Translations under genes and position numbers: made by a program | Part shown: positions 1 to 47,717 of the stretch, piece after piece | How positions within the stretch are numbered: the stretch's first letter is position 1 | How the letters are laid out: each line of letters begins with the position of its first letter | Notes under the pieces: generated by a model | The model's database searches: none | What the model saw: only the letters and a program-made list of their open reading frames with translations | What the model was told of the DNA's origin: nothing | Assembly: GCA_017654855.1 (NCBI GenBank) | Contig: CM030333.1 | Coordinates: 2,728,001-2,792,000, forward strand | Reading direction: 5' to 3' | From: Podospora anserina | Lineage: Eukaryota | DNA length: 64,000 bases

Positions 1-252
1 CCGAGTCGTGGCTTCCGGCGACGATGCTGGAAGCTCAAGGGTGAGGACTCTAACTGAGAGTCCTCATTGAATAGGAAATGAAGAAAAGAAAGAGATGAAA
101 ACCCAACACAAAGCATATGATCTGTGTGCTATGGTAAAGAGTGCTGGGGAGCTCTCAAAGGAGCGTCCCAGACCGAGGCTTTTTATATGTGAGCTACGGA
201 GGGTCCTAGACCCGCATGTACTCCTCCACCTGTGGCTCGGAGGCTCAGAACA
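1..252 (-). mobile_element. Probable LTR (solo LTR or end of an LTR retrotransposon), truncated by the window edge
   Basis: On the minus strand it begins TGTT at 252 (LTR-like TG terminus), has a TATAAAAAG box near 179-187 followed by a pyrimidine-rich tract, and a perfect 10-bp hairpin (42-51/57-66). Abrupt compositional boundary with TpA-rich DNA after 252. The other terminus and TSD are not visible. Confidence 0.45.
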
Positions 253-1796: not shown

Positions 1797-2423
1797 TCAA
1801 ATCCCAGCTATCATAAAGCCAACCAAGCCCAACACGCCGGCAGCGGCGCCGACACCCCCATGAACAGCCGCAGCACCGGCAGTGACAACAGGACCAGTGC
1901 TTGTGATGACAGGAGCGCCAGTTCCAGAAGCGACACCGCTGGTCGTGACGGTAGCGATAGTGGTGGGAGCAGGTCCATCGCAGTGCCAGTGGTCGCCATG
2001 AGGTTCGCACCCGATGGAAGCGGTTGGGCTGGGGGGCAGGACACCGGCGCTGTGGTCGTCATGGTCGTGGTCCTCTTCGTCCTCATGATCATGATCCTCG
2101 TCATCATGATCATGGTCCTGTTCGTGGTCATGGTCGTCATCATGGGCGGCAGCCGTGGTGGTGGCAGGAACAGTAACGACCTCGGAAGCGGTGATGATCA
2201 CCGGAGTCGCAGTGGTTGCGGGGGCGGTCTCGCGGGGTCCATCGCAATGCCTTTGGGAAGGTAAAGTCAATGACTATTCAGATGTTTTTACGAAACGGGA
2301 AAATTCTCACCAGTGATCACCATGAGGCTCACACCCGACAGACTCGGTAGGCGAAGGTGCCAACTCCTGGGCTGCCGCAAAGGTGCTGAGGGCGAGGATG
2401 ATGGCGGCAGAGAGTGTCTTCAT
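1797..2423 (-). CDS. Secreted/GPI-type protein with two CEPHGDHWHC histidine-triad repeats and a His/Asp/Glu-rich tract (candidate Zn-binding surface protein)
   Basis: ATG 2423 (MKTLSAAIILALSTFAAAQ signal), intron 2310-2251 (GTGAG..AAG) splitting the first motif, HDDDHDHEQDHDHDDEDHDHEDEEDHDHDDH tract, second motif at 1980-2009, Thr-rich stalk, VTAGA plus hydrophobic C-terminal tail. Confidence 0.88.
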
Positions 2424-3141
2424 ATTGCCGTGAATAAGCGAAAGACACCGGGTGGAATATAGAGAACAAATATGCGACGATCAAACTGAGCTAGTGAGGC
2501 AAGCAAGACATGTAAAACATGGGATGAAAGGCTTTTTATAGATGATGAGCAGGACCCTTCATGTGCCCAATGTCAATAGTAGTTCCAGGCTTCCTGTACC
2601 TGCATCTGAAGCAGGCTACATCCTTGGTAAAGTCGACTTCCTCTCCTGTCATCCGAGGATGTTTGCATGGGTAATCTTGTTTTTGTCTGCACCTCGATGA
2701 TTTTCGTGGGGGTGAGCTGAAAGTTTCTTGCAGGAAACCAACATGCTAGGTGTGATGGAGACCATCAAGGTTCTCAGCCAAGACATGTCTCGCTTCCACA
2801 CGTGGGATCCCTTGCCACCATTTTCTGGTTGGGGCCAACGCCGCGGTGTACTCAAGTGAATAGAAGCTTCTTTTTATTTCAGCAGGGCTGACATTGAAGT
2901 GTTGAATTTGCACAGATTGCTGAAAACTATGTACATGAACATGTGTCCAACCCTCCGGAACTTTTGACGTTTTTCATGCAGTATCCACAGTTCTATTTTC
3001 ATCCTTCGTCCTTCACCAAGTCCTTCCTCCAGCCATACTTCCCAGGTAGCAGAGCTCGGTCGATTTTTGATCGTTGATAGGGGTGTGAAGACGGCGGGCT
3101 GGCGGCCAGCTTAGGCGGGGATAACGCCGAGAGCAACTGGT

Positions 3142-3378
3142 CTAATGGTCATCACAGTGATATCTCTTCTGGCCAGCGACAGGGCAAGTTGTGGTGCCAT
3201 GGGTCTGATGGCAAGCACCTCCGGGATTGGTGGCACAGCAGTACTCGCAGGCTCCAACAAGCGTGCACCCGGTAGGGGGGAAGCAATCGCGAGCAAGAAG
3301 GTCGCTCTTGAATTCGGGAGCGGCATAGGCCACAGACGCGAGATGAAAGGCCGCAATGAGGAGCTTGAAAGAGACCAT
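3142..3378 (-). CDS. Small secreted cysteine-rich peptide (78 aa; predicted mature part 48 aa with 8 Cys and 4 His)
   Basis: ATG 3378 in good context (GTCAAGATG), signal MVSFKLLIAAFHLASVAYA, propeptide ending LLAR, mature DCFPPTGCTLVGACEYCCATNPGGACHQTHGTTTCPVAGQKRYHCDDH; TATA-like TATAAAG on the minus strand near 3508-3514. Confidence 0.8.
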   Translation of the reverse strand: MVSFKLLIAAFHLASVAYAAPEFKSDLLARDCFPPTGCTLVGACEYCCATNPGGACHQTHGTTTCPVAGQKRYHCDDH

Positions 3379-4255
3379 CTTGACAGTGGTTGTTGGCGGA
3401 AGGCTTTTGATGAGGTAGTAGAGGGCTTGGAGAGGGTTGATCAAGAGACTCGAGTGCGAGGTGGTTGATGATGGCATTCTCTGGATGAACGCACGACATC
3501 TCGTCCTCTTTATACTTGAACTGTCCTACCTGATCCGGACTTTACCTCTACTCACTTCGCGTAGTCCTCCAGTTCTTTCGATATGCATTGCAACTCTGTC
3601 CACATGAAGTGCCTGCCGCCGCGTGAGAGTCGACTGCTCCGAAGCTCTAAAGTGCCTACTAGAGCATCTCTGTTCTCTACCATCTATGAGTGTAGACACC
3701 GAGACGGCTTCACCAGCGGTCCGAGTCGTTGGAGGGCAGCCATGTACCTTGATGAACAGAGGGTCTTGGCGTGGAGGTTTTATCTGTGGTTGGCTGCGTA
3801 TCCACTCCTTGAGCACCTTGATGGGTACATCAGCTAGGATGCTTGGCATGTGGCAGCCATGGAATATTGAACCTATTGTGGCTTGCCTCTGTCCATAGAG
3901 GTTCATGAGCATGGTGTGGTGCGTTCCATCACGTAAAGAACCCGCGCGGGATGACGGAGATCATCCAAAAGCTTGTTGGAGTCGATTGATATTGGTAACC
4001 GAGGGTGATATTGAGGCCACAGAAGTGGGATGTAACTGCAAGGTCCCAATTTTGGATAGAGAGTCGTATTTGCAGGAAGATAGCTGGCGGCCATGGCGGA
4101 AGGTTGGCTGAGAAGAAGGAAATTAGTAGATCAAGTCAAGATGGTCATGCCGCGAACGGCTCTCGTCGATTAGTATTAAAGACAAGAAGCGTCTCAAGAA
4201 TTGATGAATCTCGGTGTCTAACACCCTTCCTTTATGAGACAGACTGGTGATCAAA

Positions 4256-5136
4256 ATGATGAAATCACTCTTCGCTCTTGGATTCGTTGTCGAGTTGGTG
4301 GCGGCCTTGCCCCAGGCTGTCACCCCAGCCCCTACTGGCCAAGCATGCTCGTAAGTGCCATCCTTCCGCTTTCGAGATTCCAGAAAACCAACACGACGTT
4401 CAGGACGAGAACCCGTACCCAGCTTGGAATTGACGCGACCATCACCAATTACCCCGAATTCGTCTCGTCAATGGACCAGTATTGGTCGACCTCGGGAGTT
4501 CCGTTCTCAGGGACAGAACGTGTGATTGTCTACACGTCTCTTGAAACATTCGACGGTGGCAGCTTCACAGGCTACTACACGTACGACATCAATGCCTTGC
4601 GCACCGCGGGATACACCATCACAACCAGCACCCAGGTGTCTGTATCATGCTCTCCCACAGCGACCAGCTCGGCGGTTGGCGAATGCGAGCCGCATGGTGA
4701 TCACTGGCACTGTCCCCCAGGAGTATCAGAGCCAATTACGCCTCCTTCCCCGGAGCCCCATACTACTCACTCGGCTCCTAACTCCGGGGAGTGTGAGGCT
4801 CACGATGACCACTGGCACTGCCCTCCAGGAGTTCCAGAGCCCACTACCCCCCCAGCTCCATCATCAACTCCTGTCCCCACCACCCCTGGCTCGGACGAGT
4901 GCGAAGCGCACGGTGATCATTTGCATTGTCCTGATGGCGTGCCAGAGCCAACGACGCCCCCACCCGTCATAACTCCTACGCCGACATCGTTCAGCTCAGT
5001 GACAGCATCGACCTCATTCACTCGCACAGCATCCGACGCGCCTGTCGTTACGGCTGGTGCAGACGCCAAAACCAGAGTCGGGAGTCACTTTTTAGTATTA
5101 GCTGCAGGGTTACCGTTTGTATTTGGGATGATGTGA
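4256..5136 (+). CDS. Secreted/GPI-type protein with three CExHxDHxHC histidine-triad repeats (candidate Zn-binding surface protein)
   Basis: ATG 4256 (MMKSLFALGFVVELVAA signal), intron 4351-4403 (GTAAGT..CAG) restores the long ORF frame, repeats start at 4684, 4792 and 4900 (exact 108-nt period), Pro/Thr/Ser stalk, VTAGA plus hydrophobic tail. Confidence 0.88.
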
Positions 5137-5441
5137 TAGCCTGGGGGAATCTGCGGACCATCGATTGTATAGTTAATGCTCAATAAAGGATGTTGTGGGA
5201 GTGTGCGTTGAGGACCTTGATGTCCCACCCCTGAAGCGATGGCAGCCATCAAGGTTCTCAATACCTGATATCAAGGTCCTTCTGCAACGTCATCCAATAT
5301 GACATCCCAATTGACAACAGACCATTTGTTCTCCTTTTGATGCTTTGTTGCTGTGAATAAAAAGCCATCCGAGTCCTTTCATCCTGACGAAGCGATTGAG
5401 CATCCAGCTGCCTATCATCTCACCCGACAATACTCCTCACA

Positions 5442-7115
5442 ATGCCCGACACCTCTCGCCAAACCTTGCCACACGTCCATGATGTGGTCATCATTGGTGC
5501 CGGGCCTTGTGGTCTAGCAGTAGCAGCACGACTCCGCGAAAAGGCTCCAGGTGCTATTTTCACAGACGAAGAGCACAGGAGACACCGGTTTTTGCATCGC
5601 TATGGACAATCCATGCCACTGAAGCAAGTGAGAAACGGTCGGGTCACATGCTGCGGCCGCCCAACGGCAAGCGATACACACGATCTCGATATCACGGCGC
5701 TCGATGCCACCCATGACGACTGGTGTGGCCGCTGGAACAAGCTGTTCAAGTGCTACAACATCGAACATCTCCGAAGTCCCATGTTCTGGCACGTTAGCCC
5801 AGTTGACCGCGATGCTCTCCTTGGGTACGCCTATTCGCAGAACCGGGAGAATGAGTTGCTCGAGATTCACCACTGTGTCGGAAAAGAAGTCAGCAAGCAC
5901 ATGCGGAAGAGGACCCGGACGCAGAAGTGCTCAGCCCACAGTGCTTGCAACGCCAGAGTTGAGATCAACGAACGGGACCGCATCGACTACTTCAACCCTT
6001 CTCAGGCCCTCTTCTCTGATCATTGCCGTGCAGTCGCTAGCAGGTACCATCTCTGCGATGATGTCGTCAAGAAAGAGTCCGTCCAAGACATCAGCTTCGA
6101 TGTGGTCCAAGGCATCTCTGTCAACGACGAACCCCTCTTCACAGTCACCACAGACCGGGGCCCTCAGTATGCCCGAACCGTCGTCCTCTCTGTCGGACCA
6201 GCAAATCAACCTTCCATCCCACGTCACGCCTTCAAAGCCTTCTCGGCAACAGAATCCCTCCCTCAAGTCTGCCACAGCACCCAAATCGAAACCTTCCCCG
6301 ACACTGTCGTTCGCACCAGGATGACCAACGGCCAGAGAACCAAGGTCCTCGTTATCGGCGGCGGTCTCACCTCAGCCCAACTTTCTGACCTCGCCATCCG
6401 CAAAGGCGTCACCAAAGTTTGGCACCTGATGCGCAGTCCGATTGCCATCAAGACCTTCGACGTCGAGCTCAGCTGGATGAGCAAATACCGCAACCTCGAA
6501 CAGGCCTACTTTTACTCTGCCGACACGGACGAGGAGAGATTGCAGATGGTGAGAGCTGCCAGGGGAGGTGGGAGCATTCCACCGAGATACCACAAAAAGT
6601 TGAAGGATCACATCTCTCGTGGCAGGCTGGAGTTGCGGACGGAGACAAAGTTGGTGAATGCGCAGTTTGTGACCACTGAAGCGGGTGGTCGGTGGAAGGT
6701 CGAAACTGAGCCGGCGGTTGAGGGTATACCGTTATTCGACTTCATCTATTTTGCGACGGGAATTGAGACAGACGTTGCTGCACTACCGTATCTGCAGACG
6801 ATGAGGGAAACGCACCCCATTGATGAGATGGGAGGGCTGCCGTGCTTGACTGAGCAATTGAAGTGGAAAGATGACGTGCCACTTTTTGTGACAGGAAGAC
6901 TGGCTTCGCTGAGGTTGGGAGCTGCTGGTCCAAATCTTGGTGGGGCGCGGACGGGTGCTGAGCGGATTGCCTTGGCCATTCAGGAGCATTTTGAGGAGTG
7001 CAAACGCGAGGATAAGATCAGTGGAGACATCGCTGCCGCCGATAAGGACGAGAATGAATGGGAGCGGTTTGTGCTTGGGCACGGAAGCAAGTATTCATGT
7101 TTGGTCGAGCACTAG
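5442..7115 (+). CDS. FAD/NAD(P)-dependent oxidoreductase, class B flavoprotein monooxygenase-like (related to Lys/Orn N-hydroxylases)
   Basis: 557-aa ORF with two Rossmann motifs (VVIIGAGPCGL; VLVIGGGLTSAQ), HLRSP motif, FATG motif and C-terminal LFVTGRLASLRLG..GPNLGGAR. Confidence 0.8.
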   Translation: MPDTSRQTLPHVHDVVIIGAGPCGLAVAARLREKAPGAIFTDEEHRRHRFLHRYGQSMPLKQVRNGRVTCCGRPTASDTHDLDITALDATHDDWCGRWNKLFKCYNIEHLRSPMFWHVSPVDRDALLGYAYSQNRENELLEIHHCVGKEVSKHMRKRTRTQKCSAHSACNARVEINERDRIDYFNPSQALFSDHCRAVASRYHLCDDVVKKESVQDISFDVVQGISVNDEPLFTVTTDRGPQYARTVVLSVGPANQPSIPRHAFKAFSATESLPQVCHSTQIETFPDTVVRTRMTNGQRTKVLVIGGGLTSAQLSDLAIRKGVTKVWHLMRSPIAIKTFDVELSWMSKYRNLEQAYFYSADTDEERLQMVRAARGGGSIPPRYHKKLKDHISRGRLELRTETKLVNAQFVTTEAGGRWKVETEPAVEGIPLFDFIYFATGIETDVAALPYLQTMRETHPIDEMGGLPCLTEQLKWKDDVPLFVTGRLASLRLGAAGPNLGGARTGAERIALAIQEHFEECKREDKISGDIAAADKDENEWERFVLGHGSKYSCLVEH

Positions 7116-8210: not shown

Positions 8211-9536
8211 ATGACAGCCACAACCCCCCTAAAAGTAATAATAATCGGCGGCGGCCCCATCGGCCTCACCCTCGCCCAAATCCTCACCTCCGCCGGTGTC
8301 GACTTCACCATCCTCGAACGCCGCTCCACCGTCACCCCCGAAGAAGGCGCCGGCATCGCCATCGGACCCACCTCCTTTCGCCTCTACGACCAGCTCGGCC
8401 TCCTTCCCCAAATGGAAGCCATCTCCACCCCCATCCCCCACAAGCACGTCCTCCAACGCGACGGCAAAGTCTACAACTCGTACGAATTCCACCTCCGCGC
8501 CTGCCACGGCCGCGCAATGGCCTTCCTCCACCGTCTCGACCTCGTCACCACTTTATTCAGCACCCTCCCGGATTCCGCCAAAGCCAAAATCCACGTCAAC
8601 AAATCCCTCTCCGACATCACCCTCACCCCTGAAGGCGTAACCGTCACCTGCGCCGATGGCACTTCCTACAACGGCACCCTTGTCATCGGCGCAGACGGCG
8701 TCCACTCCAAAACCCGCAAAATAATGAACTCCCTCTCCAACGCCCCAGAGTCCGAAACCCTCCCCTTTGAAACAACCTTCCAAGGCCTCTTCGGTAACTT
8801 CCCCCGGCTATCCCTCCCCGGCTCGGAAATCGAGCCAGGCCACGACTGGGAGTGCCATTCCGGCGGTGTGTCTTCCCAGTTCTTCGTCGGGAGGGACAGA
8901 GGCTGGTTTATCATCTACCGACCTCTCCCTGGCGGTCCTACGAGGGAAAGAATCGATTACACGGATGAGGACATCAAACAGTTCGCGGAAGATGTCAAGG
9001 ACATGCATGTGACAAATAAACTGACTTTTGGGGATGTTTTCAAAAATGTCAACAAGGCTGGGTTGACACAGCTTCAGGAAGGTGCTGTCAAGAATAGGAG
9101 TTGGAAACGGATTGGGTTGGTGGGTGATGCGTGCGATAAGATCACGCCGAATGTGGGGTTGGGGTACAATAACGGGGTCTTGGACGTGATTGTGCTTGGG
9201 AACTTGCTCAAAAAGTTGAATGAGAGTGGGGAGGAGATCACCGAGGAGAAGGTGGGAAAACTGTTCAAGGAGTATCAGGCTGAGAGAAAGGAGTTTTCAG
9301 AAAAAGTGGATGATGCGGCCAGAGGGGTCATCAGAACGGTTACACATACGGGGTTCATGAAGTACTTGCTTGATCGGTGGATTAACCCGGTCTTGGGGTT
9401 GGACAAGCTGTATGGTAGCAAGGTGATGGGGCCGTTGATGGCGAAGCAGCAGGTGTTGGAGTGGTTGGAGGAGAAGAATGGGATTGATGGGAGCATTCCA
9501 TGGGCGCACAAGGGACTGGTTGTCACGAAGGCTTAG
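8211..9536 (+). CDS. FAD-dependent monooxygenase (class A; aromatic hydroxylase/PaxM-like)
   Basis: 441-aa ORF with VIIIGGGPIGL, VIGADGVHS (DG motif) and LVGDACDKITPNVGLGYN (GD motif). Confidence 0.9.
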   Translation: MTATTPLKVIIIGGGPIGLTLAQILTSAGVDFTILERRSTVTPEEGAGIAIGPTSFRLYDQLGLLPQMEAISTPIPHKHVLQRDGKVYNSYEFHLRACHGRAMAFLHRLDLVTTLFSTLPDSAKAKIHVNKSLSDITLTPEGVTVTCADGTSYNGTLVIGADGVHSKTRKIMNSLSNAPESETLPFETTFQGLFGNFPRLSLPGSEIEPGHDWECHSGGVSSQFFVGRDRGWFIIYRPLPGGPTRERIDYTDEDIKQFAEDVKDMHVTNKLTFGDVFKNVNKAGLTQLQEGAVKNRSWKRIGLVGDACDKITPNVGLGYNNGVLDVIVLGNLLKKLNESGEEITEEKVGKLFKEYQAERKEFSEKVDDAARGVIRTVTHTGFMKYLLDRWINPVLGLDKLYGSKVMGPLMAKQQVLEWLEEKNGIDGSIPWAHKGLVVTKA

Positions 9537-33068: not shown

Positions 33069-34361
33069 CTATGAATCAAAGAACCTCACACCCCTAATCA
33101 CAACCTTCGGCAGTCTCGTAACCCCCATCCTCTGCTGCTTTATCATATACATCGCCACGGCAAACTCATCCTTGGTAAGATACCCATCCGTATCCACATC
33201 TGCCAGCTCCCATATCTGACCCAACACCAGATCCGGCAGTTTGGAATTACTCAAGAAAACACACGCTTCCTCCCCTCTGATCATACCCTTCCCATCTGCA
33301 TCAAGCCTAGCAAAGACCTCATCAAACCGCGCCTTATCCTCCGGCTCAACCAACCTTTCCCCCCTAATAAGATCTAACACCATCCCAAACTCCTCCCTGC
33401 TGAGGAACCCCTTGTTGTCTTTGTCCACCTGCTGCCAGATCCTCCCCAGCGTTTCCACTGGTAGACAGGACTGTTCAAAAAAGGGGCTTGCTTCCGTGCC
33501 AAGGAGGTATCCTTTCCCTCCTGCGTCAAGCTCGTTGAAGAGCTGGTCGTGGCGGGCGCGCTGAATGAGCTCCATTGCATGAGCGAACTGTCCTTTGGTC
33601 AAATATCCTCGGTTGCCTTCGTCTGCCTGGTCCCAAATTTCAGCAAGGGTTTGGCTTGGTAGGTTGAACTGTTGAAAGAACGGCACTGCTTCGTCTCCGT
33701 TTATAATTCCGTTGCTGTCCTGGTCCAAAGTTTCGAAGATGTCATCCCACTGGGATCTAGGATCATGTGGTGGTTCCTCGGTGTACATTGTGACAGCTCC
33801 GGTGTTCTTAATTATTCCCAGATCCTGATCCCCAGTGGTTGAGGGGATCGTGACCGCGGTGCAGACATCTATCACCTCTTCCGAATCCGAACCGACGTCG
33901 TGCACAGTCACCGAAACCTGACTTTTAGCACCCTTAAGACATTTAACAGCCAAAAGAGCAACGGCATCCAGCGCCATGTGCAGTGTATCTCGGTGAGCCT
34001 TCAACAATTCCCGCTGACCATCAACCTCAGCCTTAATCGCAAACGTCCACTGCAGGCCCCGATTGGAGCGCTCGCAGCCGCCAAGGGTTTTGTTGATCTC
34101 CTCAATGACATTCGAGCAGTTCCCGATCGTCGAAAGAGCTCGGTTGTGAACATCCTCGGGTATGGCGCCGTCATCAATTACAGCCGTATCCTCTCTCAGC
34201 AAGTCGAGCACGAGCTGAAGCTGCGCCAACTCGCCTGTCATTGCCAAAAGGTCAGACCTTGCGTCTCGGGAACGCCGACAAAACGTAGCAACCGCCGCTG
34301 CCGTTTCCCCGACGACGGCGACAAGATCTAAAAGCGCAGTAGTGATGGATACCGGAGCCAT
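33069..34361 (-). CDS. HeLo-like (fungal STAND N-terminal) domain fused to three EH (Eps15 homology, EF-hand) domains
   Basis: ATG 34361; MAPVSITT..FCRRSRDARSDLLAMTGELAQLQLVLDLLRED..NCSNVIEEI..W..K.EV..R..L.AHR matches the Helo_like_N pattern; three repeats of F..LD.d..G.i.G.EA..FF....LP...L..IW...D....G.L...eF. Confidence 0.82.
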   Translation of the reverse strand: MAPVSITTALLDLVAVVGETAAAVATFCRRSRDARSDLLAMTGELAQLQLVLDLLREDTAVIDDGAIPEDVHNRALSTIGNCSNVIEEINKTLGGCERSNRGLQWTFAIKAEVDGQRELLKAHRDTLHMALDAVALLAVKCLKGAKSQVSVTVHDVGSDSEEVIDVCTAVTIPSTTGDQDLGIIKNTGAVTMYTEEPPHDPRSQWDDIFETLDQDSNGIINGDEAVPFFQQFNLPSQTLAEIWDQADEGNRGYLTKGQFAHAMELIQRARHDQLFNELDAGGKGYLLGTEASPFFEQSCLPVETLGRIWQQVDKDNKGFLSREEFGMVLDLIRGERLVEPEDKARFDEVFARLDADGKGMIRGEEACVFLSNSKLPDLVLGQIWELADVDTDGYLTKDEFAVAMYMIKQQRMGVTRLPKVVIRGVRFFDS

Positions 34362-35270
34362 TTTCGGATCGATGATGGACAAAAAGCGTCACAACTCTCT
34401 TCTCACGGAAACCACGAGCCCAAGATTTCAAGCCTACAACCCCAACCCGGCTGAGCCCAAGCTAACCCAATCCTCACCGTATTCCTCAATCCAACTAGCT
34501 CTTCAGCCGCACCACCAGCTGTCCCTCTTCTATTCGTACCAATAACTCCTCTCGCCATCAACCCCTTCCGAACAAACACCCACACTAACATCTCCGAGGA
34601 GAAACCCAAAAAAGAAATTTACTCCCAGGGTTAGGATCGGCCCATTCCGTTGCCATGCAACACAGCCCCCTTTATGCAGCCCCACTCCCCCCTGAATCCG
34701 CTCCAATCGCAAAACACCCAAAAACAGGAGATAAAGTCCGGCTTCTTTTCTGCTGTACCCCGTAACACAGATTAGTCTTGCAGGCACTGCCTTCTTCTTC
34801 TCTTTCAACCTCTATCTCCAAACAGGCCCATTCCTTTTCCCAGAAACCGGATTATTGTACGCGGGGCATTGCTCGTACCTTTGCTGCGCTATATTTTGAC
34901 CCTAACCCTGACATACCGATCGGGGGGGTTCGAGGGGCAACTACACACCTACGTGAATCTCAATCAGCCCACCAACTGTGCCTCAATAAAAGAGGCAGAT
35001 TGCGAGGTTGACTTGTGGTTTCGAATCTTTAAACAATGTTGGGTGAAATACAGAGTGAAAGAAAGCATAAAGGCTGAGGCATGCGCACTGGTTTCTCAAA
35101 CATGGTTGCCCTGAAGCATCTGGCATGAAGCATGAGTAGCTGTTTATCTACAATGGTCTGTAAAGCTCTTTCTTGGGGAGGGGGAGAGGGTAAGACTGGA
35201 AAGAGACATTTCGAGATTCATTTTTGGTATCAATAACTATTTCCCTGCCCAAACTCCACCCCCAATAAAT

Positions 35271-37627
35271 CTACCACAAAGGCACCATTCCCTGTTGCTC
35301 CACAAACGGCGGCAATCCCAGTGTCATATTATCCTGAAACATCCCCCCAGTCCCCATGACAAACCCAAAGTCATTGTTCGTGTACATAGTACCAGCAAAA
35401 TCCACATTCGTGGGATAATCGAAAGGCAGAAAATCAGGCCCCAACAAAGGTGTGCTGGCCCGGGACAAGGGGTCCGGAACACCCAACAGCCCTACGCCAG
35501 TATCCGACACCTCCCACGTGGGATATTCTACAGAACCGGACATAAGAAGTGGAGGATCCAGCGTAATGAGTGGCACAGAGAACTGTTGTTGCTGCCGTAG
35601 CTGCACGCCATGCTGCATATTCGCAATCAGCCCTTGTGCTGCCGTTGCTGCCCCGTCAAAGAGTCTTTGCCTGAATGTGTCTGTGTCGACGTCATCGGCG
35701 TACAGATTTGATGTGACGTTGATGCTGACCGCCAGCAACAAATTGAACTTGGCTGCCACCACTCCTAGGTGATACCTCGTCTGCCATAGGTCTTGCAGGA
35801 AAACCAGAGATTTGGTCAACAGCTCGCGGAAGACACACCCTGTCCTTTGTGGGTGGCAGAGAATGCGGATGTTGTCTAGCTGGCGTAGTCGGCCAAGAAT
35901 CCAGCAAGATGCCATCGCCGAACGAGCAGCATCGGTCCAGAATAGCTGGCAGGCCATGTTGCTCACGTCAGAGCTAATCTGGCATAAACTGCGAAACTGA
36001 TGCAAAACAGAAGCGGCATTGTCCCACAGTTCCAACAGCTGACTGCGTTGCGAGGCCTCTGGAGATGTGCCTAATGTGCCGCCCAGTCCAGTGATAGAGA
36101 GGAAGCTGGTCATTGGGATCGAGATCAGAGATTGCTGAAGCTCCTCGATTGGGGCTGTAGGTTTGGCGCCAGATCTCAGTGCAGGTGGTAGTTCTGTCAG
36201 GAACTTCCCGAATCCCGCTCGAAGACGCGCCTGAAGTTCGTTGGTAGAAGGAGGTTGGGTTGAATAAAGCGCTTGGTGTAAAGGTCCAATGACTTGGGCC
36301 AGCTTTGCTGCAGCGACCGAAAACTTGATGTCATTTTCGGTTGTCCTTTCAAGATCCGAGTCTGTCGTTCCGTCGGATTCCCGGTCTAACGTACGGAGAC
36401 TGATCGGCAGTGGTAATGGGCAGTCGCTTTCCTCCAAGCGCAAACTGAACTGTGTTCCACTACGTATCGAGTACTCCAAATTCAACCGCACGAAGCACCA
36501 CCAGAGGCGCTTTCTGAGCTCGGCAAAATACGGCGTGACCTCCACGAAGAGTGCTGGGTCGCGATGAAGACCCATGCTGGTTGTGATATCCCTGATCAGC
36601 CCATGAAGCGGAAGCAAATCGTACATCTTGTCCGTCTCCGACGCCAAAATGCTCTTCATGACTGCTAGTAGCAGCAAAACCTGTACCACACCACAACATG
36701 GCTTTTGGAACTTTGGTGTATATATGCAATTCTCGACAGCCCTCGCCAATCTCCTCCCACGGTGCCTCTCTTGTTCGCTGCTCTGCATGGCTATGCTGAC
36801 GGCTAGCAGGATTTTGCATATGTGCACCGGATGATCGAGGGAACCTGAATAAATGCGATCCAAATCCCTGTTAAAAGCTGGCTGGTCGAGGATTCCGTAC
36901 AGGCGCCCATATGTCTGGAAGTATTTCGCGATCCACGCCTCGCATTCCTGTCGTTCGGGTAATAGCGATCGAAGGCTGGCGCTGTCCCTTCCCACTGACG
37001 GTTCGGAGACATTGTTGTATGTCCTTAGCTGAGCTTTGAGCTCGGCAAATGCCTTGCGACTAGTGTGAAATTCAGGCGAGTGATCCAACATTGCCTTCAA
37101 CACTGTCATCTCGTTACATGGAGCCAACCAATGACTCAGGCCCATCACGCGAGTCTTGAACGCAGTGCCCTTGTAGGCATTGCCTCTCGGTGCGTGAGCA
37201 ACATTCTGCTTTTCGGCTGGTGATGGCGTTGTTGGTGTGGACTCCGGTGTTTCCCCTCTTGATGAGCAGCTGTCTGGTGGCGTGTGTGTTTGTGTCGGGC
37301 CCTCAGGGGATAGTTGTGCTGATGGTGAGGGAGCTGAGGACGATGAAGGAACGCGCAGTCTTGATCGCGATCTTGGAACGCCCTGGCGGTCTTTGGGAGT
37401 GCTGTAAATACACTCGGTGGCGATACCACGATGTTTGCATTGGCCACAGGGAGATTCGCGATCGCATCGTGTTTTTCGCGTTCGGCACTTCCCCATGTCA
37501 ACATCCAATGTGATCCAGCTTCAGTCTCAGTGGGGACTCATCTTACCTGCCAGCAAGACACAGCTTCCCGAACTCTGGGTCGTTTCCTCCCTTTCAGCTG
37601 TTGCTCGATGAACGAGTCAGCGCTCAT
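35271..37627 (-). CDS. Zn(II)2Cys6 transcription factor with fungal-specific TF domain (probable cluster regulator)
   Basis: Exon 1 37627-37547 (..RKRPRVREAVSCWQ), intron 37546-37488, then CRTRKTRCDRESPCGQCKHRGIATEC; middle homology region SMGLHRDP..ELRKRLWW. Confidence 0.93.
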
Positions 37628-38860
37628 GTGGCTGAATGTTAAAGTCATGTCGAAGTGCCAACAGTCGGAACCTGCGAGCAAAATATGTTCTTGGACTTTC
37701 CCAAGATTGAAACCTCAGGGAGGAGAGATCGAGATCTTGATCCCACGCAGAAGGAGGACAGAAGTGAAGATAAATCCAAGCTCCGGGATGCGTCATTAGT
37801 CACTCGGGCAGGACTCATGCCGAACGAAATCGGGAGCGGAAGAGAGTTGAGGCAGTAACATTGAGAAGGCCAGCAGAAGCCGGATGGAAGCCAATGGCGG
37901 GAAGGGAATGTAGCGTCGGGTTGACATCGGTCAATAGTGTCAATACCTCGAGTCCTTTTGCAGGGGGCGGTGCCTGCATGATTGCATTGGGAGAAGGAGC
38001 GACCACGAGAGATGACCGGAAAGTAACCCCGCGCCACCACCACTACCACCACCATTAGAGGCCTGCCATGCATTGCAGACCATGCAGAAGCATCAGGACA
38101 TCTTCAGGTGGCTGGAGGAATTTCTACTGCAATACCAGCATTATTAATCACGGCCCATACATTGGTGTCGGCTCTTTCAATAGTAGCCATCCCAAGCGCC
38201 CTTGGGAACACGACATTCCTCTCTGCATCTCCTCGGGCAGAAATGCAACGAAGCTTTCCTTTTGTTCCACTGCATAAACACAGCCCCTGACACCACCTCC
38301 CCTCAAAAGCTTGCGATTGGATCGATCAGATTAAGCTTTTCCCTGCTTTTCCCAACTTCCCACGGCAAAGTGCGGGGTCTGACCCGACCAGCTGGGCTCA
38401 TGGAAAGGTGGTCCGGAAAGGCCCCCGCACGTGACCTTCCATGCGCAACTTCGTATGCACATGTAGGGCTGAGCCTCAGTGAAGCTGCAGCTCTTCAAGG
38501 GCGGTCAAGAAGCAAGTCGATATTGCGACTGCTGCCCCGACGTCGACGTCGGCGAACGACGGAATACTCATCGGATTTCCATTGGCATTGAGCATTCTGG
38601 AGCAAAACACGTCAACCGGCAAAGATGAGGCAGTGCAGAAAGGTCTGTAGACTGGTGACTAGAAGAAAATGCAAAAGTAACGTGCCATGGTATTGTTAAT
38701 ATCATCATATATGGAGTGGTGTGTTACAAACAGTGTCATCTCATGAACCCTAACCCTCAACATTGCCATGTCGTAAACACCCAACATGCAAGGAAAGACA
38801 AAAGAAATCTACGGTTTATGTTTGATGTTGTACAAAGATTAACAAGTCGTGTCTATCGGA

Positions 38861-40534
38861 TCAAACCGAAACCTCCTTCTTGCCACCGCATCTTGGAGTC
38901 ATCCGGACATTGAGCCCAGTCTGAGCAACCATCCAATGGTTTTGCACCTTCCAGTCGCCCTCAAGCGTCATCTATCAGCAATGTTAGCATGCGGTTTGAT
39001 GTACTTTTTGGGAGAAGACTTACCCGATACCGCCAAAACAAAGTTGGAATCAGCTTGTAAATCTCCAAATATGAGATATTCTTCCCCAAGCACGTCCTCC
39101 GTCCAGCTCCAAACGTCAACAGACACCTCTCCATCTTGACCCTTCTCTCCCTCTCACACAACCACCTCTCCGGCCTGAACTTGTCTGCATCTTCCCCAAA
39201 GACCTCCTTGCTGCGGTGAACAACCCAAGGATTCATTCCCACAACCGTCCCCCCCTCAAAGTGCACGCCGCAAAGCTCCACGCCACCTTTACCCACCACC
39301 CTCTCAAGCGGCAGCCCAATGACAGGATGTAACCTGCCCGCCTCCTTAACGCACGCATCCAAGTACGGGAGACTTTGAGACTCCTTCCATGTGACATTAT
39401 CCGATAGTCGGCCCTCGCTATTCGCCTGTGAAAGTTCCTCCATCAGCTTACCAAGACAGTCCGGATGTTTGATCAGAAAGTAAATGACGGCTCTCATCAT
39501 GATGGCAGTCGTATCGCTCCCAGCCAAGACATTCGATGTCGCCCAAGCAGTGACGAACCAGTCCAGGATATCCGGGTTCTTCTCCTTGGCCTCCAGAAAG
39601 CGAGACATGAAGTCCTTGGTATTATGGTACGTGGTCGTTTTCTCTACTTCGCTGATGTTTGATCTTTCATGCGCTCTGGCGAGAGCAAACGCCACAATGG
39701 GGGAGCTGCCTTCGGGAAGGAAGCGCGCGAGAGGGTTCTTCGCCAAGATGTTGTCAAGCCAAGGGATCTGGCCAACCTTTTACACCGTTAGCGTTCAGGG
39801 AGGAGGGTCCAAGTTCCGGATATCACTTACCCATGAGGCGTACTTGAAGACCTTCTGAATACTGCCCATGATCCCGTCGACATCCTTTGCTTCATCAAGA
39901 AAACCAAGACGTTTGCTGAACGTGATCTCGCCCATCACGTCAAAGGCAAACCACTGAAGCCATGTCCCAAGATCCACTGTTTGCCCATCTTTGGCCGAAA
40001 TTTCATCCAACTTCGTCAGAAAGAAACAAATAGTGGTGTCAACATGTGGCTCAAACTCGACTAGATTCGACATCGAGTATATATTGGCAATCGGTCTCTT
40101 CATAGCCCGGTGGAGGTCGTCATCCTGGGTGTTGAACAGCCCTTGGATCACCCTGCCGCGTGACATGGGCTGCATAACCTTGTAGAAATCGGACTAGTGA
40201 AACACATCTGTCAGATCTGCCGTCTCTTCTGTGTTACAGCGTCGGAGTTACCTACCTTTTTGAGATTGACCCCAGTACCATAAATCTTTAGGACCTCTTC
40301 TGGGTCGTCAATACTGATGCAGTTCGGCCCGAGGCGTACAAGTCTACCAAATCGGTCGTGCAGCTGCATATGAACATGATGTGCTTCGCCAGACCATGCC
40401 CATCTGAGCCTGGGGAGATTCGATATGGATGCGAAGAAGGGTCCAGGAACTTTCCGATGTCTTGCCCAGGATCGATATGTCAACACCACCACATATATCG
40501 CCCCAAAGACCAATGCAGCAAGTTGAAGGATCAT
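38861..40534 (-). CDS. Cytochrome P450, multi-exon, divergent from the PKS
   Basis: KVPGPF, LVRLGPN, WFAFDVMGEITFSKRLGFL, LAGSDTTA, EAGR, FRPERW, FGAGRRTCLG. Confidence 0.93.
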
Positions 40535-41308
40535 GGCGTTTACATGAAACAAAATGTTGAATGTACCACAAACCGAAAACCTGCGTTATCAGGACTGCCG
40601 TGTGCTTGAAGACCATGCTCGGTTGATCAGTATTAAAGCATGCCGCGTACTGGTGCTCCGTCGATGCTATATTTCTTGTCTTGACTCAAGTCTTGGCGTT
40701 TCGTGGGGGGAACTGTTCTGCGGTCAGACCGACAAAATGCTAGCTGCTTTCCTGTCTGGGAAAATAAGACCCGGAGCTGAGTAGCTATGAGTGACTGTGC
40801 CGGTCCCATGTCACCTTTAAACATAGTGCACGGGAGTGGCAATGACAACTGCCAACATGCACCAAGCCACGCCGCCGCACCGTTTAAACCACGGGTCGTT
40901 CGTTAGCGCAATCCAGGCTACCGGTGCTGGGCACACCGATGGGGTAACGAGTAAACATTGCGTGGGATCTAGACTCGGAATAGGAATCCTTCTGGAAATG
41001 TCCGGTCCTACCGAGCGGTGACCATGTCAATGACTGATGTTTTGGTTCGGACACTGGCAGAAGGCAGGTTTTGACATTGATACGAGCCCATCTTTGACAG
41101 CGTTGATGGCTATTTCCGTAGTTGATGTTAAAGTACAAATGTGGAGCAGGAAGGAAAGCTAGAGCCAATGTCAGTAAGTGTCGTGGTGATTGTATAAGAG
41201 CCGTGATACCAGTGCACTTTACCAAGATCTCTGTCAAACAAATACCGATTGTACTGCTGCTTCCTTTCATTTGTGACTATTGCCTGTCTTTGAACCACCA
41301 CCAAGAAA

Positions 41309-44300
41309 ATGACAGCCAACACTTTGCTTCTCTTTGGGGACCAGACAGGGGAGGTCCTACCTTCAATACAATCTCTCTCCAGAAATGCTTCATCAAATCA
41401 GACCTTGGCAACGTTTCTGAGGAAGGCCACAGATAGACTCAGAAGTGCAGTACTTCAAGCCCCTGCTCACTATCGACGCTCCTTTCCAAATTTCACCTCT
41501 CTCTCCGAGCTCGCCACCGCCGTGTCGAAACAAGATCACCCATCCCCTGCCTTATATGCCGCACTTCTGTGTATCGCGCAAATTGGCGATGTCATCATGT
41601 AAGATGTCCTGTCAAACAAGCCCAGCTCCTGAATGCTGACAGCTCAGATATCTCGAAAACAACCCAGGGCTCCTAGACGCTTCTAAGGACAGGCTTGCCA
41701 TTGTCGGGTTATGTACTGGCCTTCTCCCCGCCGCGGTTGTCTCGTGCTCCAGAAACCTCACCGAAGTGATCGCACTTGCAGATGAGACTGTTCATCTTGC
41801 TTTCCAAGTCGGGCTTGCGGCATCAAAAAGGTCCCACGAGGTAGATCCATCCACTGGCAGCTGGGCTACTCTGGTCTCCCAGGTCGATATTTCTGCCGCT
41901 AGGGAAGCCATTGGCATCTTCAACCGCAACTCGATCCCCAGACACCAGGTATACATCAGTGCTGAGAGCCCAAACTCAGTGACGATTAGCGGCCCGCCTT
42001 CCGCTACCGAAGCTTTCTTCAGCTCCACCTCAATCTTCGGAAAATGCAAAAGAATTCCACTTCCCATTGCAGCGGCCTTTCACGCCGATAATCTTCAGCC
42101 CATTCAGCCCACAGTGCTTCTCCAGAATATGAACCCTTCTCTACACTCGAAACCTGTACAACATCCCTTTCTTCTGTCTCCTCATTCAGGCTTGCCTTAT
42201 CAAGAGTCGTCATTCGGTAATGTTTTGGTGGAGGTTGTGGGTGACATCTTCCGGCATCCTATATTGTTCGACGCATGTACTGAAGGGCTTGCCAAAATTC
42301 TCTCATCCCAACCGAACCTTCTGGCCTTTGGACCAGTGAGCTGTGAAAAGGCCATTCAGCAAGCCCTGCACGGCCATGGTATCAAATTGGAGACTCCCAG
42401 TACTGCAACGACGCTGAACAACACTTCATCGATACCCAACGCCATAGCCATCATCGGCATGTCAGTCCGGCTCCCAGGAAGTGAGACCCTAGAAGATTTC
42501 TGGCAAGTGCTTGAGGACGGCCGCAATCTCCACGAAAAGATTCGTCCTGATCGTTTCGATATCAACACCCATGTTGATCCTTCTGGCAAGGCCAAGAACA
42601 CTAGCTTGACACCATATGGTGTGTTCATCGATCGACCTGGATACTTCGATACGAGACTGTTCAATATGTCTCCCCGTGAGGCTGCTCAAACAGACCCTCA
42701 GCAACGACTGCTCCTTCTGACCACGTACGAGGCTCTCGAGATGGCTGGGTACACTCCCAATGCAACGCCATCTACCAATACCAAAAGGATCGGCTCCTTC
42801 ATGGGCCAAACAGGTGACGACTATCGTGAGGTAAACGCGAGTCAGAACGTCGACACGTACTTCATCACTGGCAACATTCGCGCCTTCGGTCCAGGTAGAC
42901 TGAACTATCATTTCGGTTGGGAAGGGCCGAGCTATTCCGTTGACACAGCGTGTTCATCCAGCGCAGCTAGTATCCAATTGGCCTGCTCTGCGCTGCTCAG
43001 TAGCGAGGTGGACATGGCTGTGGGTGGTGGTGCTAACCTGCTCACTGCATCCGATTTGTTTGCTGGGCTAAGTCGGGGGAGCTTCTTGTCAAAGACTGGA
43101 GGTTGCAAAACCTTTGATCATGATGCGGACGGCTATGTTCGCGCAGACGCAGTAGGTGTCATCGTGCTGAAGAGGTTGGACGACGCATTGGCCGACAGAG
43201 ACAACATCCTCGCGGTCCTTCGGGCAACAGCAACCAACCACTCCGCTGAAGCATCCTCCATCACTCATCCTCACGCCGAGACACAAGAGCGACTGTTCGA
43301 TTCAGTCCTAAGCAAAGCCGGCATCGACCCTATCGAGATCGATTACGCAGAGCTCCACGGCACTGGTACCCAAGCAGGTGATGCAACCGAGAGCCGATCT
43401 GTGACCAATGTTCTTTCCCGTAACCGCCCGGCCGACAAACCCCTGTTCATCGGCACTGTTAAGCCCAATCTCGGCCACGGTGAGGCGGCCAGCGGTGTCA
43501 CCTCTCTCATCAAAGCCATCTTGATGTTGAGTAAGAACATGATTCCGCCCCATATTGGAATAAAAGGCCGGATCAACGAGAAGCTACCACCGCTGGCTGA
43601 CATGAACACCCGGATATCATTCGGTAAAACTCCATTCCGCCCCCGTCCTGGCGGTGATGGAAAGAGAAAGATCCTCATCAACAACTTCGACGCTGCCGGC
43701 GGAAATACCAGCATGGTCATCGAAGATCCTCCCATGTTACCAACAGAGGGTGTGGATCCCCGCAATCATCATGCCATTACCGTGTCTGGCAAGACGCCAA
43801 ACTCCATCATGGGGAACAGCAAGCGTCTTCTTGAGCACTTAGACCAAAATCCTGACGCTCGTCTAGAGGACATTGCCTACACCACCACTGCACGCCGGAT
43901 GCATCATAATCTGCGCAAGGCCCATGTTGCTTCTTCGATCAAGACCCTTCGGGACAGTCTGCAGCAAGCCATCACAAGAGAGACGTGGACAAAGGTCCCG
44001 GCCGCGCCCCCTCAAGTCGTGTTCCTCTTCACTGGCCAGGGTTCTGCGTATAGCGGCATGGCATCAAACCTGTTCAATACCAGCGCACCGTTCCGCGAGC
44101 TTCTTCAAGGCAATGACGATATATGCGTCTCTCATGGCTTCAGATCTTTCCTGCCCCTTGTAGAGGACAAGAACTTTGACATGACGATGGCCTCGCCGGT
44201 TCAGGTGCAGTTGGCAATTGTGTCCATAGAGCTAGCCATGGCAGAATATTGGAAATCTCTTGGGGTTATGCCGGCTGCCGTTGTTGGTCACAGCCTTGGG

Positions 44301-47300: not shown

Positions 47301-47717
47301 GGTTTCAAGAACAAGAAGAAGGCGGGCAAGACATACATGAGGGAAACTGACCATGCTCACTTTGCTGGATCGGTTAAAGCACTGGAAAGATACAAGCCTG
47401 CTGCAATGCAAAATATTTCAACTCCACTGATTAAGTCTGTCACAGTGGTGTGGGCACGAGATGGCGTTTGGGACACGGTTGGGCCGGAAGTCAAAGCAAG
47501 GCATATTAAGGCACTGGGCCAAAAGAATGCTGCAAGAGACTGGATGTTGGACACAAAATCAGACTTTGGGCCGAACGGGTGGGAGATGTTGCTCCCTGGT
47601 GCTGAGATTCAGTGCAAAGTAGTTGAGGGCGACCATTTCACCATCATGAGAGACTCAGGGGTGTTGAAGCTTGGCGAGGTACTTCAAGGTACCATCGTCG
47701 GGCCAGCTCGAAGTTGA
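41309..47717 (+). CDS. Non-reducing iterative type I polyketide synthase (SAT-KS-AT-PT-ACP-ACP-TE)
   Basis: LLFGDQT and GLCTG (SAT; intron about 41599-41648), DTACSSS/HGTGTQAGD/GHGEAASG (KS), GHSLGEY/YAFHS (AT), GHLVNGAGLCPSSIYADMA (PT), two DLGVDSLL (ACP), LPDGSGSA/GWSIGG/GDHF (TE). No KR, ER or C-MeT motifs seen. Confidence 0.97.

Follow-up and report, generated by a model that had tools for sequence, protein, structure and literature searches.

Clustered zinc-response-type promoter sites in a four-gene group of Podospora anserina that encodes candidate surface zinc-binding proteins

Four adjacent genes and their predicted products

We analyzed a 64,000-nucleotide stretch of DNA from Podospora anserina (assembly GCA_017654855.1, contig CM030333.1, positions 2,728,001 to 2,792,000 of the forward strand; hereafter the window, with positions counted from its first letter), focusing on four adjacent genes at 1797-7115 that we term G1(-), G2(-), G3(+), and G4(+). 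A preliminary description, made from the letters alone, had proposed that these genes form an undescribed zinc-scavenging island under shared zinc-response (ZR) elements, in which three secreted or glycosylphosphatidylinositol (GPI)-type proteins rich in His and Cys are accompanied by a class B flavoprotein. The gene models bore out both the arrangement of the genes and the nature of their products, as we found signal peptides, His-triad hairpins, eight cysteines in G2, and a G4 that belongs to Pfam PF13434 and has the fold of N-hydroxylating monooxygenases (Table 1). The closest relatives are proteins of P. pseudoanserina, P. bellae-mahoneyi, and P. pseudopauciseta (99%, 94%, and 97% identical; locus tags ending in 206695, 206700, and 206710).

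G1 and G3 are built around a short hairpin of the pattern C-x2-H-x-D-H-x-H-C, which is present twice in G1 and three times in G3 and is probably clamped by a disulfide. Each hairpin contains the HxxHxH arrangement in the form H-G-D-H-W-H, or H-G-D-H-L-H in the third hairpin of G3. By eye, both proteins have an N-terminal signal peptide and a hydrophobic C-terminal tail after small residues, preceded in G1 by a Ser/Thr/Ala-rich stretch, and from these GPI-type features, they are predicted to be anchored at the cell surface. The 60-nt intron of G1, with GT..AG borders on the minus strand, splits the first hairpin after HGDHW. Its splicing is backed by RNA, as positions 2249 and 2310 are directly joined in an X1 contig and run X12 contributes a matching loose end. 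The first exon of G3 is based on homology, the signal peptide and the sequence ALPQA being kept in a distant locus (L001, described below); annotated Podospora relatives of G3 (P0121, 300 aa) follow an unspliced model that starts at an upstream in-frame ATG and lacks a signal peptide (window 4234-4404). The AlphaFold2 (AF2) model of the G3 N-domain (predicted local distance difference test score, pLDDT, 82) is a small alpha/beta domain, for which the PDB yielded neither a Foldseek match at E ≤ 0.001 nor a VIA match at Z ≥ 2.

G4 passes the Pfam model PF13434 (Lys_Orn_oxgnase) with 36.9 bits against a cut-off of 21.3. Its AF2 model (pLDDT 79.7; predicted template modeling score, pTM, 0.80) contains low-confidence insertions at aa 34-80 and 148-179, and its best Foldseek matches were SidA, PvdA, KtzI, DesB, putrescine N-hydroxylase, and lysine 6-monooxygenase (E 1e-19 to 4e-16; template modeling score by target about 0.7; identity 12-18%). 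Conservation extends to the glycine motifs for FAD and NADPH and to the ATG motif (GAGPCG at aa 19-24, the invariant GGGLTS at 306-311, and FATG at 437-440). Together, the Pfam score, the two dinucleotide-binding motifs, and the fold place G4 in the structural class of the N-hydroxylating monooxygenases. However, while it shares these features with the characterized enzymes, G4 has little sequence identity with them, is ~100 residues longer, and has no siderophore assembly genes nearby. In A. fumigatus, the siderophore gene sidA is listed as repressed under zinc starvation in Table S3 of the ZafA microarray supplement.

Table 1. Positions of the features of the gene group in the window and of selected features in the compared loci (L numbers).
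Feature	Position	Strand	Description	Basis
G1	1797..2423	-	188 aa, GPI-type surface protein; intron 2251-2310; two His-triad hairpins	translation, RNA contig, homology
G1 hairpins CEPHGDHWHC	aa 31-40 and 119-128	-	identical pair, around the His/Asp/Glu run	
G1 His/Asp/Glu-rich run	2052..2144 (aa 74-104)	-	31 residues	translation
ZR-type site ACCATCAAGGTTCTC	2764..2771	+	341 bp before the start codon of G1; matches DYYVYCARGGTVYYY apart from a single flank position	
G2	3142..3378	-	78 aa, secreted; signal peptide, 8 Cys, CHQTHG, C-terminal YHCDDH	
ZR-type sites, two	3746-3753, 3815-3822	-	in the divergent promoter common to G2 and G3	
Core-only CAAGGT	4039..4044	+	212 bp upstream of G3; flanks match the consensus poorly; may be a chance occurrence	
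G3	4256..5136	+	275 aa, GPI-type; signal peptide, ~90-aa N-domain (DUF8375), three hairpins, Pro/Thr linkers, hydrophobic tail	
G3 predicted intron	4351-4403	+	53 nt, GT..AG; yields the signal peptide	
G3 hairpins	4684-4713, 4792-4821, 4900-4929 (aa 126-135, 162-171, 198-207)	+	three hairpins	translation
ZR-type sites, three in 64 bp	5214-5221, 5248-5255, 5270-5277	-, +, +	165-228 bp upstream of G4	
G4	5442..7115	+	557 aa, cytosolic class B flavoprotein without signal peptide	
CARME (carnosine/histidine N-methyltransferase) genes	L007:3918-4937, L027:3279-4364, L021:7584-8599	-, -, +	beside a G1-like gene	
Extra CCRTCAAGGT	L005:4185, L012:4390, L023:5014, L024:6666, L026:6966, L010:6297, L019:3740		just past the G1-like gene	

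Zinc-response-type sites in the promoters of the group

The sequence ATCAAGGT occurs nine times in the window against 2.41 expected, a number reached by none of 100 shuffles. Six of these nine copies (at 2764, 3746, 3815, 5214, 5248, and 5270) fall within the group's three intergenic regions, which amount to 1,900 bp in all and for which the rest of the window predicts 0.21 copies (P about 1e-7). An unbiased word count of the same three promoter regions returned CATCAAGG (five copies vs. 0.015 expected) and ACCTTGAT (six vs. 0.106) as the top 8-mers. The motif signal is one of clustering and of an extended word, not of the bare hexamer, and the proposal that all four genes have motif sites upstream was substantiated. 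Outside the group, CAAGGT is absent from the 1.1-kb region upstream of the next gene 3' of G4 (8211-9536), and neither CAAGGT nor a ZR site was found upstream of a phosphoesterase gene beyond G1. The copy of ATCAAGGT at 46206 falls inside the coding region of a polyketide synthase (PKS).

The sites of the group all lie 165-510 bp from an ATG and read RYCAT-CAAGGT-NCYC. For A. fumigatus ZafA, DNase footprinting gave the consensus DYYVYCARGGTVYYY, the CAAGGT core of which is essential for binding and which is active within 1.2 kb of the ATG (PMC6070888), and chromatin immunoprecipitation sequencing of T. marneffei ZapA returned a CARGGT core (PMC13733205). The sites of G1-G4 fit the ZafA consensus and, with their CARGGT core and pyrimidine-rich flanks, fall within 1.2 kb upstream. 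Divergent pairs of ZafA targets are co-regulated over promoters shorter than 1.2 kb that contain one to three sites of this type (PMC6070888; PMC13733205), which is the layout of the 877-bp G2/G3 promoter (the G4 promoter measures 305 bp). A functional ZafA ortholog exists in a Sordariomycete, Fusarium oxysporum (PMC11952111). In contrast to these likenesses to the ZafA/Zap1/ZapA regulon, the G1-G4 families are not among the named targets in Table 3 of PMC6070888. The A. fumigatus ZafA microarray supplement also lists unnamed targets (AFUA_3G10680 and AFUA_5G12780) and rows labeled "GPI-anchored" (AFUA_1G05790 and AFUA_6G00620).

Two further words recur in the promoters of the group. The first, GGCAGCCAT, is found three times (3731-3741, 3859-3869, and 5236-5246), and two of its copies abut ZR sites (GGCAGCCATCAAGGT and GGCAGCCATGTACCTTGATG), with which it may form an extended composite element. 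The second, GCCAAG (or GCCARG), the site of the pH regulator PacC, is not enriched in the three promoters (three copies vs. 1.7 expected); its copies at 2777, 3765, and 3842 each lie at most 30 bp from a ZR site of G1 or of G2/G3, and none is near G4.

Relatives of the four genes in other fungi

The Pfam copy that we used gave nothing significant for G1-G3 and does not contain the model PF28209, so the family was assigned via the precomputed annotation of near-identical relatives. G1 is 99% identical to P0237 and G3 is 94% identical to P0121, both of which carry precomputed PF28209. Pfam 38.1, as given in the Atlas, names this family His-triad_hairpin and names PF28210 DUF8375; the latter is precomputed on P0121-P0124 and on most G3-like matches, which identifies the G3 N-domain as DUF8375. 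The hairpin and the G3 N-domain are thus already catalogued, and calling the island undescribed was an overstatement, though our search of a limited paper collection found no paper on PF28209, PF28210/DUF8375, a "histidine triad hairpin," this family, or its link to ZIP genes. Members of the G1 family are widely distributed in Pezizomycotina: 256 proteins were retrieved at E ≤ 0.001, UniRef names several of them "GPI anchored protein," and a second G1-like paralog occurs in relatives. The G3 family gave 116 matches, and for G2, a search of 1.84 billion representatives yielded 11 clusters at E ≤ 0.001. The hairpin family is found in human and plant pathogens as well as in saprobes, with G1/G3-type matches in Coccidioides, Blastomyces, Trichophyton, Scedosporium, Pyricularia, and Fusarium, among others.

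We found no Pfam match to the core domain of the Pra1/Aspf2 zincophores (HRXXH, PF13933) in G1-G3, and no Pra1-like gene in 47 loci from other genomes (see below). However, three Dothideomycete proteins of the Pra1 (HRXXH) family, P0222, P0228, and P0233, end in the same CxPHGDHWHC-type hairpin (...C-T-P-H-G/D-D-H-W-H-C-P-P-G-V-P-E-P), with both hairpin and linker as in G3, and the Atlas shows the hairpin on 13% of one cluster of ZIP transporters. Thus, the G1/G3 module shares a part with the Pra1/ZrfC system. The earlier statement that none of the proteins looks like Pra1/Aspf2 therefore holds for the core domain only, and through the hairpin, the module has a tie to Pra1. Of one G3-like Atlas cluster, 18% also matches Strep_his_triad; profile A1 searched against PDB sequences gave non-significant compositional matches only, including the His-rich loop of ZnuA at E 0.6; and the His/Asp/Glu run of G1 resembles this loop and Pfam ZrgA (19.5 bits, below the cut-off of 27.4) in composition only. 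We rejected as spurious the tblastn matches of Pra1-family cores at window 6434-6676, which reached E 7e-4 in a 64-kb database (~32 bits) and lie out of the G4 frame.

Scanning metagenome contigs with the family alignment yielded 47 loci, most of them G1-like and with the intron at the same position after HGDHW. We kept 23 of them and dropped 10 near-duplicates, 11 without an identifiable start or of another subfamily, and 3 that looked bacterial. In the 1 kb upstream of the G1-like starts of the 23 loci, CAAGGT was found 42 times against 10.2 expected (2.17 vs. 0.53 per kb, a 4-fold enrichment), and the extended word CCRTCAAGGT 21 times against 0.94 (about 22-fold). A site is present in 18 of the 19 G1-like loci that have at least 500 bp upstream, and the bases leading up to the core tend toward G-C-C-R-T. 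CAAGGT ranked third of 2,070 six-mers by enrichment; in these promoters (L002-L040), the most enriched were GCCAAG, found 63 times against 18 expected and present in 20 of 23 loci, and CCAAGA, which overlaps it (55 vs. 13.3). A GCCARG-type enrichment would mirror the joint control of zrfC/aspf2 by ZafA and PacC.

In 11 of 21 distinct groups of loci, the neighbor of the G1-like gene is a Pfam ZIP gene, and most of these pairs are divergent (head-to-head), with the sites in the shared promoter. Of the ten groups without such a neighbor, four offer 5 kb or more of sequence to either side, and the remaining six lie on contigs shorter than 4.2 kb. CAAGGT is still enriched when only the 12 loci with no visible ZIP gene are considered (15 vs. 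4.4 expected). In the window itself, as the preliminary description had noted, no ZIP gene is present: Pfam detected none among the 22 open reading frames (ORFs) of at least 114 aa, and tblastn with ZIP pieces from the related loci gave a best E of 0.056.

The grouping of G1, G2, and G3 recurs outside Podospora. The distant locus L001 (34-40% identity) contains G3-like(-), G2-like(+), and G1-like(+) genes, which is the order and orientation of the window in reverse. In L035, G2-like and G3-like genes diverge from a 750-bp promoter with four ACCTTG, two of which read ACCTTGATG in the orientation seen in the window. Together, the window, L001, and L035 show that G2 and G3 form a divergent pair over a ZR-bearing promoter in all three G3-like loci with enough upstream DNA. 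G4 homologs are widespread as well (838 matches, about 50% identical across classes), but co-location of G4 with G1 and G3 on one contig appears to be confined to Podosporaceae (Triangularia setosa, T. verruculosa, and Apiosordaria backusii). As a set of four genes, the island is thus limited to one lineage. In other fungi, the motif was retrieved upstream of G1-like genes and in the G2/G3 promoter of L035.

Some features of the compared loci touch the G1 family in other ways. In three long loci without a ZIP gene, a CARME gene lies beside the G1-like gene (Pfam E 1e-37 to 1e-42), an adjacency that may be plain lineage synteny. An extra CCRTCAAGGT recurs ~0.9-1.2 kb downstream of the G1-like start in seven loci (Table 1); in L010 and L019, it precedes a downstream ZIP gene. 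The three bacterial-looking contigs (L034, L036:5908-6102, and L037) are high in GC and carry a lipoprotein-like ORF (signal ending in LVGTSGC) with a single ECWRHGDHWHCH; among its neighbors (sulfatase, aminotransferase, TetR, and others), there is no zinc context.

A proposed surface zinc relay and its alternatives

Fungal zinc uptake is currently described as the work of ZIP permeases and one protein zincophore family, Pra1/Aspf2, which several lineages no longer possess. Pra1/Aspf2 is a surface or secreted zinc binder, induced when zinc is limiting, that resembles G1 and G3, at the level of sequence, in having a His motif flanked by Cys at one flexible end. Its gene stands head-to-head with a ZIP gene (Zrt1/Zrt101 in Candida albicans or ZrfC in Aspergillus fumigatus) on a ZR-bearing promoter, as is the case for G1-like homologs in about half of the locus groups. 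In contrast to Pra1/Aspf2, G1-G3 lack the HRXXH deuterolysin-like core, are predicted to form GPI-type tethered arrays rather than a free hexamer, and have no ZIP partner in the window. C. albicans Pra1 binds zinc with the highest affinity at its C-terminal CHTHXXGXXHC region, a part that has been pictured as a zinc-foraging arm (PMC9175090; PMC12663325), and synteny of Pra1 with Zrt101 has been described (PMC12663325). ZrfC is an importer of the alkaline type, with a zinc-binding N-terminus, under the control of ZafA and PacC (PMC9785309).

A second parallel comes from another kingdom. The pneumococcal and streptococcal histidine triad (Pht) proteins (PhtA/B/D/E and Sht), which feed AdcAII/Lmb, are surface-attached and, like G1 and G3, carry several HxxHxH motifs. 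They bind zinc by three histidines and one glutamate and feed AdcAII; their zinc-regulated genes adjoin a zinc importer component, and the proposed role is that of a "zinc magnet" or of directional transfer (PMC9175090). In the fungal proteins, by contrast, the motif is bracketed by two cysteines and set in Pro/Thr-rich linkers, and the partner would be a ZIP permease instead of the binding protein of an ATP-binding cassette system.

On balance, we favor the interpretation that G1-G4 are a zinc-limitation gene group of the ZafA/Zap1 type that encodes a surface zinc relay. For G1, G2, and G3, the link to zinc is strongly reinforced by the conservation of the motif, the ZIP neighbors, and the G3/G2/G1 synteny in other fungi. 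From the sequence comparisons, we infer ZafA binding, induction by zinc limitation, zinc binding, GPI anchoring, hand-over to ZIP proteins, and the roles of G2 and G4, as follows. Under zinc limitation, an activator of the ZafA/Zap1 type would bind the clustered RYCATCAAGGT sites. Each hairpin of G1 and G3 would coordinate a single Zn2+ with three histidines and one acidic residue, and the His/Asp/Glu run of G1 would add further binding. Both proteins would gather zinc at the cell wall or membrane for delivery to ZIP importers, the ectodomains of which carry related motifs. Such a relay would resemble a cell-bound version of the Pra1/Aspf2 C-terminal "arms," as well as the Pht proteins feeding AdcAII. 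G2, the conserved companion of G3, is a candidate soluble zinc carrier or adaptor for the DUF8375 domain of G3. G4, a diverged flavoenzyme of the N-hydroxylase fold, is probably co-induced with the others, and its inclusion is the least secure element of the group.

Several observations weigh against a relay of this kind. Window-wide, the bare CAAGGT is not enriched (41 copies vs. 38.2 expected), and the consensus that the sites fit is a Eurotiomycete one. For the comparative enrichment, the background includes coding DNA, and the loci are phylogenetically non-independent, many of their signal peptides being alike, which brings the effective sample below 23. Codon 28 of the G1 copy in L001 is an in-frame TAG, and no ATG is present in the G2 copy there (L001:5930-6030 and 4930-5190); this cluster may be decaying, strain-variant, or mis-assembled. 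The predicted intron of G3 is read through unspliced in RNA contigs of three runs, which does not disprove splicing but makes the start of G3 uncertain. Because the window holds no ZIP gene, the hand-over partner would not be local. As for the Pht parallel, the window proteins gave no match to PF04270 (Strep_his_triad) at E ≤ 1, and profile A1 retrieved no Pht chain from the PDB sequences at E ≤ 10. Finally, no G4 homolog was found in the 47 fetched loci, and in nine species (Paramyrothecium, Sodiomyces, Stachybotrys, Thozetella, Trichothecium, Achaetomium, Hirsutella, Chaetomium olivicolor, and Fusarium zealandicum), G4 lies on other contigs than the hairpin proteins. Its link to zinc thus rests on its three local sites only.

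The findings on G4 raise a plausible, if on the whole doubtful, alternative, in which the functional zinc module consists of G1, G2, and G3, while G4 is an unrelated neighbor in Podosporaceae with independent or bystander sites upstream. It would account for the wide distribution of G4 homologs as compared to the much rarer G3 and G2, as well as for the scattered genomic positions just listed, and it agrees with the flanks of G4 within the window, where there is no other biosynthetic gene (no nonribosomal peptide synthetase [NRPS], NRPS-independent siderophore synthetase, or acyltransferase). Against it, the sites are packed most densely in the G4 promoter, with three copies of ATCAAGGT at -165 to -228, and the spacing of these sites resembles that of the strongly induced A. 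fumigatus zrfA (Table 3 of PMC6070888). The lack of CAAGGT upstream of the next gene 3' of G4 likewise counts against this alternative.

For G2, the role of a metal carrier or adaptor competes with that of an antimicrobial or effector-type Cys-rich secreted peptide, which would be paired with G3 through shared secretion or wall biology. G2 is indeed small and secreted and has eight cysteines, and its nearest feature neighbors in the Atlas are generic small secreted proteins of ascomycetes, including an "Antifungal protein" cluster; however, all of these neighbors score at most 0.80, which is within the range of chance. Moreover, the family alignment (A2) shows that, along with the eight invariant cysteines, the histidine positions are kept: an invariant CH is followed by a nearly invariant His (CH-x2-H), and the C terminus reads YHCDD-x-H. 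Together with the recurrent divergent pairing with G3, this makes the peptide explanation rather improbable.

We see a smaller chance that the proteins handle another transition metal (copper, nickel, or cobalt) or that they buffer or detoxify metal in the wall instead of scavenging zinc. His/Cys motifs are not metal-specific, and extracellular Cys-His clusters bind copper and nickel too. What speaks against another metal is the combination of ZIP neighbors in about half of the locus groups, a promoter word that matches the site of the zinc regulator, and a hairpin that is shared with the zincophore family. Least likely of all is that a different factor, such as a pH or developmental regulator, binds the ATCAAGGT cluster and that the co-regulation does not depend on zinc: GCCAAG and CCAAGA lead the six-mers upstream of G1-like genes and the literature examined maps no Sordariomycete ZafA site, but in the window promoters it is ATCAAGGT and not GCCAAG that is enriched, the flanks fit the ZafA footprint, and ZafA and PacC act together at zrfC (PMC9785309), so that PacC-type sites favor a zinc/pH system rather than count against it.

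If the surface zinc relay is correct, it would point to the hairpin family as an added component of the fungal zinc machinery, made of widespread and conserved surface proteins that have a zinc-regulator site and stand head-to-head with an alkaline-type ZIP gene. It would also provide DUF8375 and the G2 mini-protein family with a hypothesis of function and flag G4, an orphan but highly conserved enzyme of the N-hydroxylase fold, as a possible zinc-responsive gene. A bolder extrapolation, which we hold to be unlikely in its full extent, is that Pezizomycotina have a second, tethered system of zinc capture beside or instead of Pra1/Aspf2. In such a system, a relay of GPI-anchored hairpin proteins would load ZIP proteins of the ZrfC type, as a eukaryotic equivalent of bacterial Pht and AdcAII; in some lineages, G2 would serve as a secreted mini-zincophore with DUF8375 as its receptor, and in Podosporaceae, a zinc-induced G4 would make or modify a small zinc ligand.

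The remainder of the window contains further genes. Next to G1, two ORFs at 646-1498 match the Pfam family Phosphoesterase (E 1e-4 and 1e-12) and are probably exons of one gene of the phospholipase C/acid phosphatase type. Farther away, a HET-domain gene (26180-27112) and a secondary-metabolite cluster (33072-47714) are both unrelated to the zinc group; the latter includes a Zn2Cys6 regulator (35274-37496), a cytochrome P450 (38964-39608), and a non-reducing PKS (42129-47714).

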